A stretch of 64,000 bases of DNA, taken from assembly GCF_055900595.2 (NCBI RefSeq), contig NZ_CM148325.1; one strand, 5' to 3'. A model generated the notes under the pieces. It was not told where the DNA came from, made no database searches, and worked only from the letters and a program-made list of their open reading frames with translations. The translations under genes were made by a program, and so were the position numbers. Below are positions 5,548 through 52,495 of this stretch, in pieces. Numbering within the stretch: the first letter of the stretch is position 1; each line of letters starts with the position of its first letter.

Positions 5548-6987
5548 TTACTGCAACCAGGTCGCGGCGAATACGCTGGAAATCAGCGACATCACAATTA
5601 GTACAATCAACACCAGGCGCATTGATCCTGGCAGCGGTGCGGCAGCGGCGACGGCTTCGCTCGGTTTGCCAGGCACGACGCGACCAAACCAGCGAATAAA
5701 CCAGGCGAAACTGGCGACCGATTCAATCATCAGCAGAATCATGGCGGGCAGCAGGATCCAGTACTCCACTGACAACGAAAAACCGGCAGCAAACAGTGGG
5801 AATTTACTGAAGAAGCCGTTGAACGGCGGCACGCCAGTAATCGCCAGCGCGGCCACGCAGAAACCCACGCCTGGCAACGGCAGGGTGTGCAATACGCCAC
5901 GCAGGCGCGGCAACAAGCGCGTGCCGCAGCTGTAACTCAGCGCACCTGCTACAAGGAAAAACAGGCTTTTAGCGAACGCGTGGTTGACGATGTAGGCGAT
6001 GCTGCCCTCCAGTGCCAGCCGCGAGCCGAAGATGGAGAGCGACAAGCCGAAGAACATCCAGCCAAGTTGAGTGATGGTCGACCAGGCCAGCAACCGCTTC
6101 ATATCCTGCTGCGGCAAATACATCAGGAAGCCGTAAAGAATGGTGACCAGTGCCATGACCATGCCAATGCCGCCAATCACATGCGGGATATTGCCGCCGT
6201 CGATAATGGCGCGGGCAAAAATGTAAACGCCCACTTTCACCATCGATGCGGCGTGGAGATAGGCGCTGATCGGTGTTGGCGCTTCCATTGCATCCGGTAG
6301 CCACGCTTGCATCGGTAGCTGGGCCGATTTTCCCCACGCGGCAAACAGGATGCCGCCATAAACCAGATAACGTGCGTCGCCGTGTAACTCGCTCATCGCG
6401 CTAAGCGCAAACGTTCCGGTCTGCAAAAACAGCGTGGCGGCGGCAAGATACAACCCCAGCGAACCGATATGAGTGATAAGTAACGCTTTTAGTGCTGAAC
6501 GTTGCGCTTTATCGCTCTGGTAATAACTGATCAACGCCCAGGAGCAGCCGCCCGTAATTTCAAAAAACAACAACTGACCGAGCAGCGTCGAGGAGAGTAC
6601 CAGTCCCGCCATCGCGCCGATAAAAACCAGCAAAAATGCGTAATAACGATTCGTGCCGTTATGCGGGTGTTCGCGATTTTTATCCGTCAGATAACCCGTG
6701 GAGTAGATCGTGACCAGCAAACCGAGGAACACCACCACAAACAGAATCAGCGTACTCACGCGATCAATGACCAGGCCAAACAACGCCACATCCCCCACGT
6801 TGACCAACGTCAACGTGACGGCAACTTTATCGGCCTGATAAAACGCGGAGATCAGCGACAACATGCACAGCGTGGTCAGCGCGGCGAACAAAATCCCCCA
6901 TTCGGCGGCCCGACGTTGTGGCGAAAACGAAACGACCAGTGCGCCGATAAAAGGCAGCAATAACGTCGTCAGAGCAAGATTTTCCAT
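5548..6987 (-). CDS. hyfD: Hydrogenase-4 membrane subunit, NuoM/N antiporter-like
   Basis: 479-aa polytopic membrane ORF; conserved position. Confidence 0.93.
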   Translation of the reverse strand: MENLALTTLLLPFIGALVVSFSPQRRAAEWGILFAALTTLCMLSLISAFYQADKVAVTLTLVNVGDVALFGLVIDRVSTLILFVVVFLGLLVTIYSTGYLTDKNREHPHNGTNRYYAFLLVFIGAMAGLVLSSTLLGQLLFFEITGGCSWALISYYQSDKAQRSALKALLITHIGSLGLYLAAATLFLQTGTFALSAMSELHGDARYLVYGGILFAAWGKSAQLPMQAWLPDAMEAPTPISAYLHAASMVKVGVYIFARAIIDGGNIPHVIGGIGMVMALVTILYGFLMYLPQQDMKRLLAWSTITQLGWMFFGLSLSIFGSRLALEGSIAYIVNHAFAKSLFFLVAGALSYSCGTRLLPRLRGVLHTLPLPGVGFCVAALAITGVPPFNGFFSKFPLFAAGFSLSVEYWILLPAMILLMIESVASFAWFIRWFGRVVPGKPSEAVAAAAPLPGSMRLVLIVLIVMSLISSVFAATWLQ

Positions 6988-7961: not shown

Positions 7962-9980
7962 TTAGACGGCAATAGCGATTAGCAGCACAACCAGTGCGGC
8001 GACCACATACAGGCAATAGAGACGAAAGTCGCCGCTTTGCAGATGCTGTATTTCTTTGGCCAGCCGTTGGGTGGCGCTCACGATGGGGCGGATCACCCGC
8101 TCATCCCAAAAGGGTTCTGTGCTCTGAGCCCTGGCGGTGATGTGCGCGAGACCTTTGTTCAGCCTCAGCGTAGGGTCGAGCTGTTGTCGTAGACGAAATA
8201 GCGCAGAAAAGACCACACGCAGCGGCTGCATCACGCCATTGCCTGACGGGGCCATCGCATTTTCCCAGCCGTAGCCGCATGCCCAGGCATCTCCTGTGCG
8301 ACGAAACGCTGCGCGGCGCGAACGACACCACAGCCAGTAAAGGCCAGGCAGCAAAGGCATCGCCAGTAGTAACAGCAACAGTAATGAGGGAGTGACCCGT
8401 GTATGAAACGTGCCGGGTACAAGTGCCATTCCGCTGGCGACAGTGACGGAAGGGGTATTGGTAAACGCATGGGCAATGTGCATTATCTTCGGTGCCAGCC
8501 AACTGGCACTAAGCGCAATGAATACGCAGAGTGCCGCGAGCAGTAGCATGGCGACGATCATCGTATTTGGCACTTCCTGTGCCTCTTCAGCGTGTGTACT
8601 GCGCGGCGCACCACAGAAAGTAATGCCGTACATTTTGACGAAGCACATTACTGCCAGCCCACCAGTGACTGCCAGCATCACCATAGCAATAGGACCCGCA
8701 AGTTGTAGCGCTACGGCTTCCACACGACTTAGTGAGAACAGCGACTGCCAGGTGTACCATTCGCTGATAAAACCATTCAGCGGAGGAATGGCTGATATCG
8801 CGAGGCAACCAATCAGGCATGCTGCGGCTGTCCACGGCATCCGTTTTGCCAGTGCCCCCATTTTTTCCATGTCGTGGGTATGCAAACGCGAAATAATCGC
8901 ACCCGCGCCGAGAAATAGCAGCCCTTTGAACAGCGCATGGTTGAGCAGATGAAACAGTGCGCCGAGCAGTCCAACCACGGTGAGCAGCGGGTCGTGCAGT
9001 GACAGACCGACCATGGACACACCGACCGCCAGCAAAATAATGCCGACGTTTTCGACGGTACTCCAGGCCAGCAGCCGTTTGATATCCTGTTCCGCCAGCG
9101 CATACAGCACGCCCAGGAGCGCGGAGATTGCGCCGATCGCCATCACCAGAATGCCCCACCACAGCGGCAAACCCGTTTGCGCCAGCAGATCCATCGCCAC
9201 TTTCAGGATGCCGAAAATACCGATTTTGACCATTACGCCAGACATCAACGCCGAAGCGTGCGATGGTGCGGCAGGATGAGCGCGCGGCAACCAGCTGTGC
9301 AACGGCATCATCCCGGCTTTCGCGCCAAAACCGAAGAAGGCCAGCAGGAACACCGCCGACGCCAGCCCCGGAGAAAGTGAAAGCGTGCGGAAACTGGCAA
9401 AATCGAGGTTGCCGCTTTCGCGCCACATCAGCAAGAAGGCAATCATAATCAGCACCGATCCGGCGTGGGCGATAAAAAAGTAGAGCATGCCAGCGTTGAT
9501 TGACGTTTTATCCTGCCTGGCAATGACCAGAAACCAGGAAGACAGCGACATCATTTCAAACAACACGATGAACCAAAAAGCGTTGTCCATCACCAGCAGG
9601 GCAACCATCGATGCGATGAAAAGATTCATAAAGAAGCCCATCGCCGCCGCGCCTTTGCCCTCGTATTCGCGCATATAAGTCAATGAATAGAGCGAACAAA
9701 CCACCACCAGCAAGGAGATAACCAGCACCATAAATGCCGAGAGGCTATCCATTCGCAGGGTTAAATCGGCAAAGTCAAAAGGCGTGGCAAAACGGGCGAC
9801 TAAAGTTACGCCTGCATGTAATTGCGTAATTCCGCTGATGATGCCAATCGCGCCGCCCACCAGCGATGTGATGCCGGAAAGCTTAATAGCCAGTCTGTCC
9901 AGACCGAGTAAAAACAGCGAAGCCAGACTGGCAAACAGATAGAGGATCAGCGACCAGGTTAATAATTGCAGGGCATCCAT
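7962..9980 (-). CDS. hyfB: Hydrogenase-4 membrane subunit, NuoL-like
   Basis: 672-aa polytopic membrane ORF (MDALQLLTWSLILYLF...); conserved position. Confidence 0.93.
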   Translation of the reverse strand: MDALQLLTWSLILYLFASLASLFLLGLDRLAIKLSGITSLVGGAIGIISGITQLHAGVTLVARFATPFDFADLTLRMDSLSAFMVLVISLLVVVCSLYSLTYMREYEGKGAAAMGFFMNLFIASMVALLVMDNAFWFIVLFEMMSLSSWFLVIARQDKTSINAGMLYFFIAHAGSVLIMIAFLLMWRESGNLDFASFRTLSLSPGLASAVFLLAFFGFGAKAGMMPLHSWLPRAHPAAPSHASALMSGVMVKIGIFGILKVAMDLLAQTGLPLWWGILVMAIGAISALLGVLYALAEQDIKRLLAWSTVENVGIILLAVGVSMVGLSLHDPLLTVVGLLGALFHLLNHALFKGLLFLGAGAIISRLHTHDMEKMGALAKRMPWTAAACLIGCLAISAIPPLNGFISEWYTWQSLFSLSRVEAVALQLAGPIAMVMLAVTGGLAVMCFVKMYGITFCGAPRSTHAEEAQEVPNTMIVAMLLLAALCVFIALSASWLAPKIMHIAHAFTNTPSVTVASGMALVPGTFHTRVTPSLLLLLLLAMPLLPGLYWLWCRSRRAAFRRTGDAWACGYGWENAMAPSGNGVMQPLRVVFSALFRLRQQLDPTLRLNKGLAHITARAQSTEPFWDERVIRPIVSATQRLAKEIQHLQSGDFRLYCLYVVAALVVLLIAIAV

Positions 9981-10597
9981 TAGCGTTGCTCCTGAGTGAG
10001 GGAAAGGGGATCCTCCCCGCCATTGGCAAACCAGCTTGCGGCAAGGCGCTGTTTTTCTTTCATCTGACGTTGCAGGCTATCGTCGGTGATCAGCCGTAAC
10101 GCATGATTCGGGCAAGCGCGAACGCAGGCCGGACCTTCTGGCAAGAAATCACACAGGTCGCATTTCACCGCGACGCTCTGGACACCCGGTTCCCAGCGCA
10201 GCAAAGCATGTTGGGTCGGCGCGTTTTCTTCGCCGTCTTTGAGTGAGCCGTCAGCCTGAAAAACATATTGCGCAGGGGCATTCACCGGACGGCTTCCTGA
10301 AGCGCTGATTGCGCCAAATGGGCAGACCACGGCGCAAAGCTTGCAGCCAATACAGAGGCTTTCGTTGAGTTGGATCGCATCATCTCTCTGGGAGATGGCA
10401 TTGACCGGGCAGACCTGCAGGCAAGGGGCTTCCTCACAGTGATGACACACGACAGGGGCAGTGAGTGTTGACGTCTTCGCCAGGGCCAGGCGCGGGTGTT
10501 GCTGTAAACCTTGCGTTTTATGCACGTCCGAACAGGCAGCGAGACAGGTATTACATCCTGTACACCACAGTGGTTCGGCCACCACAAAGCGGTTCAT
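9980..10597 (-). CDS. hyfA: Hydrogenase-4 4Fe-4S ferredoxin-type electron-transfer subunit
   Basis: ORF 9980..10636 trimmed to the Met at 10597 (MNRFVVAEPLWCTGCNTC...), giving 205 aa; multiple CxxCxxC Fe-S motifs; AGGAG SD upstream. Confidence 0.9.
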   Translation of the reverse strand: MNRFVVAEPLWCTGCNTCLAACSDVHKTQGLQQHPRLALAKTSTLTAPVVCHHCEEAPCLQVCPVNAISQRDDAIQLNESLCIGCKLCAVVCPFGAISASGSRPVNAPAQYVFQADGSLKDGEENAPTQHALLRWEPGVQSVAVKCDLCDFLPEGPACVRACPNHALRLITDDSLQRQMKEKQRLAASWFANGGEDPLSLTQEQR

Positions 10598-10638
10598 GTC
10601 GGCTCCTTGAAAATGATATGAAACATTGCATTTCATTT

Positions 10639-10654
10639 TGCATAAAGGATGCCA
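10639..10654 (-). promoter_or_regulatory. Candidate sigma-54 (-24/-12) promoter of the hyf operon
   Basis: Minus strand reads TGGCAT-CCTTTA-TGCA (GG-N10-GC spacing, close to TGGCAC-N5-TTGCA) about 45 nt upstream of the hyfA ATG. The hyf operon is reported to be sigma-54/FhlA/HyfR dependent. Confidence 0.5.
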
Positions 10655-10849
10655 GTCTGATTAATTTAATATATTCAATAAGTTATGTGTTAACTGGGTT
10701 CTGAACGGTACAAAAATGATGGTCATTAACGTTCAGCAATAAATGGATTCGACACCCGTGTCGCAGGGGAAAGCGAGAATGTGATCTTGATCACGAGAAG
10801 TGAGGTGTGCTGGCCGCAAGCGCAGCCAGCACTGAATGGAGCAAAGTAA

Positions 10850-11320
10850 TCAGGCGTGTTCTTTCAGCCAGTTCAGCACAACGTCGTGGTGATTGCTGGT
10901 TTTGAAATCGTCAAAGACATGTTCGATTTTGCCATCAGCGTCAATCAGGAAGCTGATGCGATGAATACCATCGTAGGTTTTGCCCATGAAGGACTTTTCA
11001 CCCCAGACGCCGAATTGTTCGCACACCTGGTGGTCCTCATCAGACAGGAGCGTAAAGTTAAGCAGCTCTTTTTCCGCAAAACGGGAGAGTTTTTCGGGTT
11101 TATCGGTGCTGATACCCAGCACATCAACGCCCGCTTTTTTCAATTCATCCATGTTATCGCGTAAGCCGCAGGCCTGTACGGTACAGCCGGGAGTCATGGC
11201 TTTTGGGTAAAAATAAACCAGAACACGCTGTCCCTGGAAGTCGGTCAAATTAACTTGTTCTCCGTCTTGATCCGGCAAGCTAAATTTCGGTGCGATATCA
11301 CCGGCTTTCAGTGGATTCAT
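10850..11320 (-). CDS. bcp: Thiol peroxidase / bacterioferritin comigratory protein (peroxiredoxin)
   Basis: 156-aa ORF MNPLKAGDIAPKFSLPDQDGE... with the peroxiredoxin PGCT motif. Confidence 0.95.
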   Translation of the reverse strand: MNPLKAGDIAPKFSLPDQDGEQVNLTDFQGQRVLVYFYPKAMTPGCTVQACGLRDNMDELKKAGVDVLGISTDKPEKLSRFAEKELLNFTLLSDEDHQVCEQFGVWGEKSFMGKTYDGIHRISFLIDADGKIEHVFDDFKTSNHHDVVLNWLKEHA

Positions 11321-11892
11321 TACTTAACTCCATCCTGTTCATCATGTGGGGAATAATTGACGACGTTTATACTGCCTTGTGCATTGAGTTCTGTACATAG
11401 GGCTTTAAACGCTTGCTCAATATTTGCTGCATCCGCAGAGGCGGGGCTGTGGGCGGTGATCTGAATATGCAACTGTGCAGCCCGTTCATTTTCAGCAGGT
11501 TGCGTGCGCGATACCAGCTCCGCAATGTTCATGTGGTGCGCGTCGAAAAGTGCCGTGAAGCGTTCAATTAAATGCGGGGAGTCTGCCACATCGACCTGAA
11601 CCCAGACAGATGCTGGCATTGGCGGACGCGGACGAGCCGTCGTGCGCTTCATCACGATTAAAAGATCCAGTTCGGCACCTTTCAACGGTAACGTTGATTC
11701 AATCAGAGTAATGGCATTCCATGAACCGGAAAGCAGCATGATAAACGTGAACTCTTCTCCCAGCATCGCCAGGCGACTGTCTTCAATATTACAGCCGCAA
11801 CTACTGACATGACGGGTGATGGTGTTCACAATTCCAGGGCGATCGGCACCCAACGCAGTGATCACCAGATAATGTTGCGATGACAGTGTCAA
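11320..11892 (-). CDS. gcvR: Glycine cleavage system transcriptional repressor
   Basis: ORF trimmed to a TTG start at 11892..11890 (M/L-TLSSQHYLVITALGADRPG...), giving 190 aa; ACT-domain-like protein. The bcp ATG overlaps its stop by 1 nt. Confidence 0.88.
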   Translation of the reverse strand: MTLSSQHYLVITALGADRPGIVNTITRHVSSCGCNIEDSRLAMLGEEFTFIMLLSGSWNAITLIESTLPLKGAELDLLIVMKRTTARPRPPMPASVWVQVDVADSPHLIERFTALFDAHHMNIAELVSRTQPAENERAAQLHIQITAHSPASADAANIEQAFKALCTELNAQGSINVVNYSPHDEQDGVK

Positions 11893-33442: not shown

Positions 33443-35722
33443 ATGGATGACCAGTTAAAACAAAGTGCACTTGATTTCCATGAATTTCCAGTTCCAGGGA
33501 AAATCCAGGTTTCTCCAACCAAGCCTCTGGCAACGCAGCGCGATCTGGCGCTGGCCTACTCACCAGGCGTTGCCGCACCTTGTCTAGAAATCGAAAAAGA
33601 CCCGTTAAAAGCCTACAAATATACCGCTCGTGGTAACCTGGTGGCGGTGATCTCTAACGGTACGGCGGTGCTGGGGTTAGGCAACATTGGCGCGCTGGCA
33701 GGCAAACCGGTGATGGAAGGCAAGGGCGTTCTGTTTAAGAAATTCGCCGGGATTGATGTATTTGACATTGAAGTTGATGAACTTGACCCGGACAAATTTA
33801 TTGAAGTTGTCGCTGCGCTCGAACCGACCTTCGGCGGCATCAACCTCGAAGACATTAAAGCGCCAGAATGTTTCTATATTGAACAGAAACTGCGCGAGCG
33901 GATGAATATTCCAGTATTCCACGACGATCAGCACGGCACGGCAATTATCAGCACTGCAGCCATCCTCAACGGATTGCGCGTGGTGGAGAAAAACATCTCC
34001 GACGTGCGGATGGTGGTTTCCGGCGCGGGTGCAGCAGCAATTGCCTGTATGAACCTGCTGGTGGCGCTGGGGCTGCAAAAACATAACATCGTGGTTTGTG
34101 ATTCAAAAGGCGTTATCTATCAGGGCCGTGAGCCAAATATGGCGGAAACCAAAGCCGCATATGCGGTGGTAGATGACGGCAAACGTACCCTCGATGATGT
34201 AATTGAAGGCGCGGATATTTTCCTGGGCTGTTCCGGCCCGAAAGTGCTGACCCAGGAAATGGTTAAGAAAATGGCTCGTGCGCCGATGATCCTGGCGCTT
34301 GCGAACCCGGAACCAGAAATTCTGCCGCCGCTGGCGAAAGAAGTGCGTCCGGATGCCATCATCTGTACCGGCCGTTCCGACTACCCGAACCAGGTTAATA
34401 ACGTGCTTTGCTTCCCATTCATCTTCCGTGGCGCGTTGGACGTTGGTGCAACAGCCATCAACGAGGAAATGAAACTGGCGGCGGTACGCGCGATTGCAGA
34501 ACTGGCCCATGCGGAACAGAGCGAAGTCGTTGCTTCGGCGTATGGCGATCAAGATCTGAGCTTCGGCCCGGAATACATCATTCCAAAACCGTTTGATCCG
34601 CGTTTGATCGTTAAGATCGCTCCTGCGGTCGCTAAAGCGGCGATGGAGTCGGGCGTGGCGACGCGTCCGATTGCTGATTTCGACGTCTACATCGACAAGC
34701 TGACTGAGTTCGTTTACAAAACCAACCTGTTTATGAAGCCGATTTTCTCCCAGGCCCGCAAAGCGCCGAAGCGCGTTGTTTTACCGGAAGGGGAAGAGGC
34801 ACGCGTTCTGCATGCTACTCAGGAACTGGTGACGCTGGGACTGGCGAAACCGATCCTTATCGGTCGTCCGAACGTGATCGAAATGCGCATTCAAAAACTG
34901 GGCTTGCAGATCAAAGCGGGCGTTGATTTTGAGATCGTCAATAACGAATCCGATCCGCGTTTTAAAGAATACTGGACCGAATACTTCCAGATCATGAAGC
35001 GCCGTGGTGTAACTCAGGAGCAGGCACAGCGGGCACTGATCAGTAACCCGACAGTGATCGGCGCGATCATGGTTCAGCGTGGCGAAGCCGATGCAATGAT
35101 TTGCGGTACGGTGGGCGATTATCATGAACACTTCAGCGTGGTGAAAAATGTCTTTGGTTATCGCGATGGCGTTCACACCGCAGGCGCAATGAACGCGCTG
35201 CTATTGCCGAGTGGTAACACTTTTATTGCCGATACCTACGTCAATGACGAGCCAGACGCAGAAGAGTTGGCGGAGATCACCTTGATGGCGGCAGAAACTG
35301 TTCGTCGTTTTGGTATTGAGCCGCGTGTGGCTCTGTTGTCACACTCCAACTTTGGTTCTTCTGACTGCCCGTCGTCGAGCAAAATGCGTCAAGCGCTGGA
35401 ACTGGTCAGGGAGCGTGCGCCAGAACTGATGATTGATGGTGAAATGCACGGCGATGCAGCGCTGGTGGAAGCGATTCGCAGCGATCGTATGCCGGACAGC
35501 CCTTTGAAAGGTTCCGCCAATATTCTGGTGATGCCGAACATGGAAGCTGCCCGTATTAGTTACAACTTACTGCGCGTTTCCAGCTCGGAAGGTGTGACTG
35601 TCGGTCCGGTGCTGATGGGTGTGGCGAAACCGGTTCACGTGTTAACACCAATCGCATCCGTACGTCGTATCGTCAACATGGTGGCGCTGGCCGTGGTTGA
35701 AGCGCAAACCCAACCGCTGTAA
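33443..35722 (+). CDS. maeB: NADP-dependent malic enzyme with C-terminal phosphotransacetylase-like domain
   Basis: 759 aa [23 protein letters not shown]... Confidence 0.95.
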
Positions 35723-44837: not shown

Positions 44838-46237
44838 ACACTCGCCAGCTACTGAGCGTCGGTATCGATATCGGCACTACCACCACCCAGGTGATCTTCT
44901 CCCACCTGGAGCTGGTTAACCGTGCGGCGGTGTCGCAGGTGCCGCGCTACGAATTCATCAAACGCGAAATTAGCTGGCAAAGCCCGGTGTTCTTTACCCC
45001 TGTCGATAAACTGGGCGGTTTAAAAGAAGCGGAACTGAAAACCTTAATCCTCGAGCAATATCAGGCTGCGGGCATTGCGCCGGAAAGCGTTGATTCTGGT
45101 GCCATCATCATCACCGGTGAAAGCGCGAAAACCCGCAATGCTCGCCCGGCGGTGATGACGCTCTCCCAGTCGCTTGGCGATTTTGTCGTCGCCAGCGCCG
45201 GGCCGCATCTCGAATCCGTGATCGCCGGTCACGGTGCCGGGGCGCAAACCCTTTCTGAACAACGGCTGTGTCGGGTACTGAATATCGATATTGGCGGTGG
45301 CACCGCGAACTACGCTTTGTTCGATGCCGGAAAAATCAGCGGCACCGCTTGCCTCAACGTCGGCGGTCGCCTGCTGGAAACCGACAGCCAGGGGCGCGTG
45401 GTTTACGCTCATAAACCGGGGCAGATGATAGTGGATGAGTGCTTCGGTGCAGGCACTGACGCCCGTTCGCTGACTGGCGCGCAGCTGGTGCAGGTTACCC
45501 GGCGGATGGCGGAACTGATTGTCGAAGTGATTGACGGAACGCTCTCGCCGCTCGCGCAGGCATTGATGCAAACCGGTTTGCTGCCCGCAGGTGTTACGCC
45601 AGAAATCATTACGCTTTCTGGCGGCGTGGGCGAATGTTATCGCCACCAGCCCGCTGACCCGTTCTGTTTTGCCGATATTGGCCCGCTTCTGGCAACGGCG
45701 CTGCATGACCATCCGCGCCTGCGTGAGATGAACGTGCAGTTTCCGGCGCAAACCGTACGCGCCACGGTGATTGGCGCGGGCGCACATACCCTTTCGCTCT
45801 CTGGCAGCACAATCTGGCTGGAGGGGGTACAACTGCCGCTGCGCAATTTGCCGGTGGCGATCCCAATTGATGAAACGGATCTGGTGAGTGCCTGGCAACA
45901 AGCGCTAATTCAGCTGGATCTTTGCCCCAAAACTGACGCGTACGTGCTGGCGCTTCCCGCCTCGCTGCCTGTGCGTTACGCCGCGGTACTGACGGTCATC
46001 AACGCGCTGGTCGATTTCGTCGCGCGTTTTCCGAATCCGCATCCCCTGCTGGTGGTGGCCGGGCAGGATTTTGGTAAAGCTCTGGGCATGTTGTTGCGCC
46101 CACAGCTACAACAACTCCCGTTGGCAGTCATTGACGAAGTGATTGTCCGCGCGGGGGACTATATCGACATTGGTACGCCTCTTTTTGGCGGATCGGTTGT
46201 GCCGGTGACGGTGAAATCACTCGCATTTCCTTCCTGA
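44834..46237 (+). CDS. eutA: Ethanolamine ammonia-lyase reactivating factor
   Basis: 467 aa; 4-nt overlap with eutH. Confidence 0.93.
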   Translation: MNTRQLLSVGIDIGTTTTQVIFSHLELVNRAAVSQVPRYEFIKREISWQSPVFFTPVDKLGGLKEAELKTLILEQYQAAGIAPESVDSGAIIITGESAKTRNARPAVMTLSQSLGDFVVASAGPHLESVIAGHGAGAQTLSEQRLCRVLNIDIGGGTANYALFDAGKISGTACLNVGGRLLETDSQGRVVYAHKPGQMIVDECFGAGTDARSLTGAQLVQVTRRMAELIVEVIDGTLSPLAQALMQTGLLPAGVTPEIITLSGGVGECYRHQPADPFCFADIGPLLATALHDHPRLREMNVQFPAQTVRATVIGAGAHTLSLSGSTIWLEGVQLPLRNLPVAIPIDETDLVSAWQQALIQLDLCPKTDAYVLALPASLPVRYAAVLTVINALVDFVARFPNPHPLLVVAGQDFGKALGMLLRPQLQQLPLAVIDEVIVRAGDYIDIGTPLFGGSVVPVTVKSLAFPS

Positions 46238-50874: not shown

Positions 50875-51192
50875 TTATTGCCCAACGGGATAGGCGATAA
50901 ACAAACCGACAATTGTCAAAATACACGCCAGCAGGAATACCAACATACAATTTACGCGCTTTCGCGAAATTTTAAATAAATAGCAAAATAGTGTTGTTAC
51001 CACGATCACTACCGGGATAGTCATAAAATTAATAACGATGAGTGCTATCAATCCAAAACTTGCTCCTCCACCGTGGGGAATAAAAATGTGTTCTTCAAAA
51101 TAAACTTCTATAGCAAATGCCAGCACACATCCCAGAAAACTCATATCCAGATGAGGGTGCCATTTACTTTCTTTATGTGATGTGTCTGACAT
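50875..51192 (-). CDS. Hypothetical small membrane protein (105 aa, about 3 predicted TM helices)
   Basis: ATG preceded by a GGGAG SD; hydrophobic segments FLGCVLAFAIEVYF, FGLIALIVINFMTIPVVIVVTTLFCYLF, CMLVFLLACILTIVGLFIAYPV; 40 nt downstream of and co-oriented with the 420-aa gene. Confidence 0.6.
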   Translation of the reverse strand: MSDTSHKESKWHPHLDMSFLGCVLAFAIEVYFEEHIFIPHGGGASFGLIALIVINFMTIPVVIVVTTLFCYLFKISRKRVNCMLVFLLACILTIVGLFIAYPVGQ

Positions 51193-51232
51193 TCTTAAAT
51201 GCTCCCGTGAGCAAACTGGCGCAAAATAATTT

Positions 51233-52495
51233 CTAAGATTGCTGATAAGACGTCGCTGTTGTCCGGCACTCCGGGCAGATAAACGCGTAAATTATCCCTT
51301 CGCCGTATTGTTCAATATCGGCATAATCCAGTTGCGCAAGAAACATCATTGTGTGGGAACATTGCGGACAGAGAGGATATTCCGCGTCCTGAATCCAGGT
51401 TGGATGCCCGCCAAGTTGCGAGAAAGAGACAGGTAAAAATGGGTCTGCGGCAAATAACGGTGACCTAAGGTTTCCCTGTCTCATGCTGTTTACAGGGAGT
51501 CGACGCCATTCCGATACATCATCCGGCAGCCAGGCAGGCGGGATATTTTTTGCAGACAAATGAGCGTTACCCTTTGAGTCCATGTAGCCGAAAATGGTGC
51601 TGTAGGCGGTGCAACATTCGCAAGTCACGACGCGAAAACTGCCGTTATCGCTAAGACCCGTTGCCTTCAGGTCAACGTCGAAAAGATTTGTTAGTGGCAA
51701 TGCGCAATTTGGACAGGTATCGTTGCGTTCATCAACAACACGCAAAGCTTCGCAAGACCCGGTGCTTTTCATCTCCAGATGAAAACATTGAGGAAAATAG
51801 AGATTACGCCTTTGATCTTCAGCGGTTAACTCCCAACCGGCCTCATGCGCATATTCTTCAGGCTCGATGTAAAGGGAGCTGCGCCACGGCGGTGGGCTAT
51901 TGCGCCAGTGGGCAAAACGTTCAACGACAACGTCATCCCCAATCCATGCCAGACATTGCAGAATACAATTTCTGTTTTCTGCATCATCCTCAACCCGTTC
52001 TAACAGCCTGTCGCGTACATCTGTGGGGGCGCGGTGGAAAGGCATATAAGAATCATTGTCCAAATCATCGTAAGAGATCCATTCTCTGAAATAGGCATTC
52101 AGATTCGCCTGGGTAAATGCCGCCAGACAAAGGCAAATCTCCTGAGCGAGCTTATATTCACCAGATGCAAAGCGTTCTGTGGCGTAATCAGCCATCAGCT
52201 GCGCTTGATCGGTGGTCAGTTGTTGATACAGGGCATCTGTGGGAACGGGGCAGGGAGTCCAGTCGATTAACGCATCGAATTTCCGCGGTTGGTGAATTAA
52301 TTTCAGCATGACAACCGGATCGCTTAACCCTGCAAACGCATTCACGATCTTTTTGTTTTTCTTGATATATTCGTCGTGCTCACGTTGCTGTTGGGCCTGC
52401 TCGCAGGGCATGCAGTATCCGTTAGTACGCGCTGCGGTTTCCGGAAGAATGGTTGATATACAAGCGGGGCTTTTACAGGGAATACGGTGAGTCAT
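51233..52495 (-). CDS. Hypothetical cysteine-rich protein (420 aa) with zinc-ribbon motifs and a DUF1963/YwqG-like C-terminal region
   Basis: ATG with an AAGGAG SD 8 nt upstream; N-terminal C-x4-C...C-x2-C (CKSPAC...CMPC), internal CPNC...CECC, and C-terminal GGHPTWIQDAEYPLCPQCSHTMMFLAQLDYADIEQYGEGIIYAFICPEC. Family assignment is from memory, not a search. Confidence 0.7.
   Translation of the reverse strand: MTHRIPCKSPACISTILPETAARTNGYCMPCEQAQQQREHDEYIKKNKKIVNAFAGLSDPVVMLKLIHQPRKFDALIDWTPCPVPTDALYQQLTTDQAQLMADYATERFASGEYKLAQEICLCLAAFTQANLNAYFREWISYDDLDNDSYMPFHRAPTDVRDRLLERVEDDAENRNCILQCLAWIGDDVVVERFAHWRNSPPPWRSSLYIEPEEYAHEAGWELTAEDQRRNLYFPQCFHLEMKSTGSCEALRVVDERNDTCPNCALPLTNLFDVDLKATGLSDNGSFRVVTCECCTAYSTIFGYMDSKGNAHLSAKNIPPAWLPDDVSEWRRLPVNSMRQGNLRSPLFAADPFLPVSFSQLGGHPTWIQDAEYPLCPQCSHTMMFLAQLDYADIEQYGEGIIYAFICPECRTTATSYQQS

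Follow-up and report, generated by a model that had tools for sequence, protein, structure and literature searches.

The intergenic region in front of hyfA raises the question of which promoter drives the hydrogenase-4 operon and how that promoter is controlled. We analysed it within a stretch of 64,000 nucleotides (the window) from contig NZ_CM148325.1. The initial annotation, made from the letters of this stretch, had proposed a sigma-54-type promoter immediately upstream of hyfA. This reading is supported by ChIP-seq and RpoN genomic SELEX data from K-12, by an identical core sequence, by conservation and by the sites found upstream. The site is almost certainly hyfAp, the sigma-54 (RpoN) dependent promoter of the hydrogenase-4 operon hyfABCDEFGHIJ(-hyfR-focB).

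EcoCyc and two genome-wide sigma-54 data sets already contain this promoter, which is textbook knowledge rather than new. Its recovery serves as a positive control for the scan, since a reader working from raw sequence correctly found a real sigma-54 promoter. The analysis also shows in brief how the control region of hyf is laid out in this strain, with a module of palindrome, IHF-like site and -24/-12 elements that is conserved well beyond E. coli.

The bcp-hyfA locus

The window comes from an E. coli chromosome, and NZ_CP098223.1 (E. coli strain Z0117EC0005) matches it at 99.96-99.98% across its full length. According to the annotation of that record, hyfA is the first gene of the hyf operon and hyfB-hyfJ then run to the left edge of the window; upstream of hyfA lie bcp (10850-11320) and then gcvR. 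The gene hyfR is placed beyond hyfJ, past the left edge, and fhlA lies elsewhere in the genome. The spacer between bcp and hyfA is 252 nt long (10598-10849), and its features are listed in Table 1. The annotated ATG of hyfA in NZ_CP098223.1 corresponds to 10597; a mechanical list of open reading frames starts the gene in frame at ATG 10636 instead. The latter codon falls between the -12 element and the transcription start of hyfAp, that is, within the promoter, and ATG 10597 was therefore taken as the true start.

Table 1. Features mapped in and around the bcp-hyfA spacer (window coordinates; upstream distances relative to the predicted transcription start).
Feature	Position	Strand	Remarks
hyfA CDS	9980-10597	-	205 aa, begins MNRFVVAEP; 4Fe-4S subunit of hydrogenase 4
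5' untranslated leader	10598-10627	-	short, 30 nt; Shine-Dalgarno AAGGAG at 10608-10603
Transcription start (predicted)	10627-10628	-	10628: 12 nt downstream of GC, counted from its C, and 31 nt before the ATG
Sigma-54 (-24/-12) core, CTGGCATCCTTTATGCA	10655-10639	-	17-mer; GG 10653-10652, GC 10641-10640, GG-N10-GC spacing
IHF-like site, TAACTTATTGAAT	10673-10685	-	centre ~-51; one mismatch to the IHF consensus YAANNNNTTGATW
-90 block, TGACCATCAYTTTTGT	10710-10725	-	16 nt, centred ~-90; identical in 8/8 aligned sequences
Palindrome, CGACACGGGTGTCG	10750-10763		CGACAC-GG-GTGTCG, centred ~-129
CRP site, CGTGATCAAGATCACA	10780-10795		centred ~-160
GC-rich hairpin after the bcp stop codon	10807-10832	-	inverted repeat I3, without a T-run

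The hairpin behind bcp probably marks the end of the bcp transcript. A strict terminator scan of the bcp-hyfA spacer called no terminator, this hairpin included, and an Rfam search of 9900-11400 returned nothing but sub-threshold chance matches.

A search of the complete-genome collection of E. coli with the spacer found the hyf promoter region in 4297 of 5426 genomes. Nearly all of the remaining genomes (~21%) matched at the bcp end alone, the hyf promoter being absent. In one promoter-less genome that was examined, yfgO and bepA come directly after bcp, and this genome thus lacks the hyf locus altogether.

Some further observations were made outside the spacer. At 239 the window has one C more than NZ_CP098223.1. 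The annotation of that record gives hyfJ as frameshifted; the hyfJ reading frame of the window is open for all 97 codons to the window edge. A 3-nt (AAA) deletion relative to NZ_CP098223.1 at 54607, between ypeA and amiA, is a trivial strain difference. Between hemF and eutR, at 50875-52495 on the minus strand, there are open reading frames for a DUF1963 protein (420 aa) and a hypothetical protein (105 aa), as named in the near-identical record.

The sigma-54 core promoter

Between 10680 and 10590 the minus strand reads ...tcagaCTGGCATCCTTTATGCAaaatgaaatgcaatgtttcatatcattttcAAGGAGccgacATGaaccgc..., and it contains the motif cTGGCATcctttaTGCAaaat with GG-N10-GC spacing exactly as the initial annotation had described it. 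The distance to the hyfA start, given there as about 45 nt, was measured as 43 nt from the C of GC to the A of the ATG. The Shine-Dalgarno sequence said to follow the motif is AAGGAG, located 5 nt before the ATG. Compared with the consensus TGGCAC-N5-TTGCW, the site (TGGCAT-N5-ATGCA) has two departures, T for C and A for T. A start at 10628 would put GG at -25/-24 and GC at -13/-12, and from this spacing transcription in this strain is predicted to begin at 10627/10628.

The motif alone is compatible with chance. The degenerate consensus TGGCAYNNNNNWTGCW had one match in the window versus 0.67 expected, and at least one match occurred in 47 of 100 shuffles. The weight-matrix scan that had been suggested as a check was run with the RpoN matrix of Barrios, built from 186 promoters and taken from Table 2 of PMC7658346. 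The hyfA site scored 12.4 of 21.2 bits and ranked fifth among ~128,000 window positions. The four better matches are all intragenic, in hyfD (6151-6166, minus strand), eutA (45679-45694, plus strand), hyfA in antisense (10488-10503, plus strand) and maeB (34797-34812, plus strand). The matrix alone thus fails to single out the true site, as four intragenic positions outscore the real promoter. The genes holding these four positions were not found in the published sigma-54 ChIP-seq tables. The hyfA site was the sole intergenic top match oriented toward a gene start, and about 0.01 matches this strong and in the right orientation are expected in a 252-nt spacer. The significance of the site therefore rests on its position, its conservation and published experiments.

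Bonocora et al. (2015) reported a sigma-54 ChIP-seq site in K-12 (OS23) with the 16-nt core and predicted a start 31 nt upstream of hyfA, in agreement with 10628. In their table the hyfA site scores 10.5, inside the range of confirmed promoters, and carries the flag 'C' (experimentally confirmed in EcoCyc). By genomic SELEX, Shimada et al. (2021, PMC8743547) found the bcp-hyfA spacer as a 92% peak for the RpoN holoenzyme, and with NtrC added the spacer gave a 100% peak, the highest. Both kinds of occupancy data were obtained in K-12, and the K-12 16-nt core equals that of the window.

Earlier work on hyf bears on the same points, and the link to FhlA/HyfR drawn in the initial annotation rests on the study of Skibinski and co-workers. 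Skibinski and co-workers reportedly placed the start 30 bases upstream of hyfA by primer extension, and are said to have found that hyf expression depends on sigma-54, FhlA, formate and low pH. Overproduction of HyfR reportedly induced expression ~1000-fold, and purified HyfR is said by the same group to bind the promoter region. Self and co-workers reportedly found cAMP-CRP to be required as well.

In wild-type E. coli, hyf is described as poorly expressed or 'silent' (PMC7384014, citing Skibinski 2002 and Self 2004), which implies that the promoter rarely fires in laboratory conditions. In Proteus mirabilis the activity of the hyf promoter was lost in fhlA and rpoN mutants (PMC7658346), and in Pectobacterium deletion of hyfR nearly abolished FHL-2 activity (PMC7384014).

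Conservation of the promoter

No base of the 16-nt core differs between the window, K-12 and O157:H7. For comparison across genera, a HyfA scan with one genome per species gave 45 loci with 43-71% identity, none of them from Escherichia; the within-species comparison was for this reason drawn from the complete E. coli genome collection. The HyfA start was present with upstream sequence in 43 of the 45 loci. In 30 of these 43, the best sense-strand match to the RpoN matrix within 300 nt upstream reached at least 12 bits (range 12.2-18.6). Both the GG and the GC dinucleotide were present in all 30, and the GC preceded the start codon by 40-138 nt, in most cases by 40-85 nt. On the antisense strand of the upstream stretches of the 43 loci no match reached 12 bits, the best being 9.4.

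The motif was found in Citrobacter, Kosakonia, Atlantibacter, Sodalis, Dickeya, Morganella, Providencia, Pectobacterium, Photobacterium and Uliginosibacterium and, among Betaproteobacteria, also in Burkholderiaceae genomes assembled from metagenomes. The closest relatives, those in Citrobacter, retained the spacer itself (TGGCATCCTTTGTGCA) as well as the distance, at 40-43 nt. In 7 more loci (Serratia, Pseudescherichia, Siccibacter and one Enterobacteriaceae genome) one gene precedes the HyfA homologue, and there a strong sigma-54 motif lies ahead of that upstream open reading frame.

In Pseudescherichia vulneris and a related metagenome-assembled genome (loci L029 and L032) the HyfA-like gene follows a 155-aa open reading frame preceded by a sigma-54 motif (~902-917), and a stronger, divergent sigma-54 motif of 17.2 bits lies on the opposite strand. 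This arrangement resembles the back-to-back layout of hycA and hypA.

The alignment covered eight spacer sequences: one each from the window and K-12, two from Kosakonia and four from Citrobacter. Four islands of conservation stood out in it, in addition to the ribosome-binding site and the -24/-12 core. CAAGGAGCC and its spacing to the ATG were kept in Citrobacter and Kosakonia.

Sites upstream of the core

The initial annotation had suggested a search 100-200 bp further upstream for sites of enhancer-binding proteins, and this search yielded the conserved palindrome and, nearer the core, the IHF-like site (Table 1). In 24 of 33 loci an IHF-like motif, with one mismatch allowed, was found at a nearly constant distance of 24-37 nt upstream of TGGCA; its density in control sequence was 0.017 per 60 nt. 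This recurrence suggests that IHF may act at 10673-10685.

Within the 200 nt that precede the sigma-54 motif, 29 of the 33 loci contained the pattern CGWCA-N4-TGHCG, with 33 occurrences in all, versus 3 in 107 kb of flanking control; the enrichment is generous, as the pattern was defined after viewing the very loci that were later counted. In K-12, the FhlA-dependent promoters of fdhF (CGTCAAAACTGACG) and hydN (CGTCACTAGTGTCG) have the same palindrome upstream, and these two matches are independent and so free of that bias. The closest genera have the palindrome at the same distance, ~100-102 nt upstream of TGGCA. The rest of the 64-kb window contains one other match to the pattern, on one strand only. 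The palindrome at 10750-10763 is likely the upstream activating sequence, with FhlA or HyfR as the presumed binding protein. A published 14-nt FhlA matrix (TGWC-RAWRAT-GWCA), which is based on 13 sites and has little information, gave its best spacer match on the CRP site (9.9 bits) and only 5.0 bits on the palindrome. Because its best match is the CRP site, this matrix was not used to assign the activating sequence.

The same 16-mer as the CRP site is given for a CRP ChIP-seq peak at hyfA in ETEC H10407 (PMC4287617), and hyfA is among the known CRP targets recovered via genomic SELEX (PMC3105977). The site is conserved in the alignment, with a perfect TGTGA-N6-TCACA in Citrobacter.

Comparison with K-12 and with other formate-dependent promoters

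The K-12 hyfAp is the same locus, and its 16-nt core TGGCATCCTTTATGCA, distance to hyfA, leader, ribosome-binding site, CRP site, palindrome and IHF-like site are all identical to those of the window. A few single-base polymorphisms separate the two spacers. Just 5' of TGGCA there is a C in the window and in O157:H7 and an A in K-12; just after the -12 element the window has GCAAAATG and K-12 has GCAATATG; and the window has CAGAAC where K-12 has CAGAAT. No functional difference is expected from these polymorphisms.

The promoters of the FhlA-dependent formate regulon (fdhF, hydN-hypF, hycA and hypA) have a sigma-54 -24/-12 core as in hyf. Those of fdhF and hydN also share with hyf an upstream palindrome of the type CGWCA-N4-TGWCG, whereas the hyc-hyp upstream region is full of CGACA/TGTCG pentamers without an exact copy of the palindrome. 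The hyf palindrome has a GC-rich spacer between its arms, and its distance to the -24 element is ~102 nt, compared with ~69-79 nt in fdhF and hydN. Further features of hyf, beyond those of the other formate-regulon promoters, are a CRP site and a paralogous activator of its own, HyfR.

Bacteria with FHL-2 (Proteus mirabilis, Pectobacterium atrosepticum, Providencia, Morganella and Dickeya) share with E. coli hyf the sigma-54 core, the palindrome and an IHF-like site 24-37 nt upstream. In these bacteria the palindrome is nearer the promoter (57-94 nt), and their promoters lack both the CRP site and the -90 block. Their hyf operons are well expressed, whereas that of E. coli is not.

Model of hyfA transcription and alternative explanations

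The arrangement of sites is the one typical of promoters under the control of an enhancer-binding protein. In the model that we favour, sigma-54 RNA polymerase would bind the -24 GG and -12 GC (10653-10640) in a closed complex that is unable to open the DNA unaided. The AAA+ enhancer-binding protein FhlA, or its paralogue HyfR, would bind the palindrome, ~100 nt further upstream, and IHF, by bending the DNA near -51, would bring this protein to the polymerase. The promoter would then be opened through ATP hydrolysis by the activator, and the transcript would start at 10628/10627, its 30-nt leader including a strong ribosome-binding site. Catabolite control would be added by CRP-cAMP at ~-160. 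Of the elements of this model, the sequence, its conservation and the architecture were observed here, and the occupancy by sigma-54 and CRP is published.

It is very unlikely that hyfA is driven by a sigma-70 promoter in the spacer, with the RpoD holoenzyme at ATGACC-17-CAGAAT (~10726-10698) and the sigma-54 site secondary. Shimada et al. (2014, PMC3946193) did obtain a genomic SELEX peak for the RpoD holoenzyme in this spacer and assigned it to that hexamer pair, and CRP, which is bound upstream, usually acts at sigma-70 promoters. However, both hexamers are poor, and the -10 hexamer in the window has lost the key final T. It is also not conserved in Citrobacter and Kosakonia, whereas the sigma-54 core is, and a simple consensus scan of the spacer found no sigma-70-like promoter. 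Expression of a hyfA-lacZ fusion reportedly needed rpoN in the work of Skibinski and co-workers, which also counts against sigma-70.

Marginally less probable still is a sigma-54 site that is bound yet transcriptionally inert, like many intragenic sites in E. coli, in an operon that is effectively dead. In any one condition the majority of sigma-54 ChIP sites show no activity (Bonocora et al.), native hyf expression is poor, and the fifth or so of complete E. coli genomes without the hyf promoter region fit such a view. Against it, many genera keep the -24/-12 elements, the IHF site, the palindrome and the ribosome-binding site in the same register, a sign of selection on function that makes an inert site unlikely. 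Moreover, the homologous promoter of Proteus is active and depends on rpoN and fhlA (PMC7658346), and the E. coli promoter is marked as experimentally confirmed in EcoCyc. We give the least weight, close to none, to the view that hyfA is mainly transcribed by read-through from bcp and that the -24/-12 match is a coincidence. The bcp hairpin has no T-run and was not called as a terminator, so a minor contribution of read-through is possible. As the main source of hyfA transcripts, however, read-through would leave four or five conserved protein-binding motifs in a 252-nt spacer unexplained. The site is occupied by sigma-54 in vivo and in vitro, and in other genera a different gene lies upstream and the sigma-54 motif is still there.

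The -90 block and the start-site inverted repeat

Across Escherichia, Citrobacter and Kosakonia the -90 block is as conserved as the -24/-12 core. It overlaps the '-35' guess ATGACC of Shimada et al. (2014) for sigma-70, and also the FNR-like sequence TTAATgaccATCAT. When the block and the inverted repeat at the start site (see below) were compared by eye with sites of Fur, FNR, NsrR, ModE and NarL, no regulator could be assigned. Fur-like and FNR-like readings fit the E. coli sequence, but Citrobacter and Kosakonia do not keep the positions that distinguish such sites, and for this reason neither protein was assigned. Literature searches on hyf with CRP and HyfR, with NsrR and with Fur ChIP-exo found nothing relevant. 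As a speculation to which we give a low probability, the block might be the site of an unrecognised regulator or a second, HyfR-specific site, which would separate hyf from the FhlA regulon and contribute to its 'silence' in E. coli. It offers a small, testable lead on why hydrogenase 4 is so poorly expressed in this species.

A 14-nt inverted repeat, AAAATGAAATGCAA / TTTCATATCATTTT, with 86% complementarity, lies at 10610-10639 on the minus strand and spans hyfAp from the -12 element to ~+18. It is present in E. coli and is not conserved in Citrobacter. The repeat could be an operator, or could have arisen by chance in AT-rich DNA.
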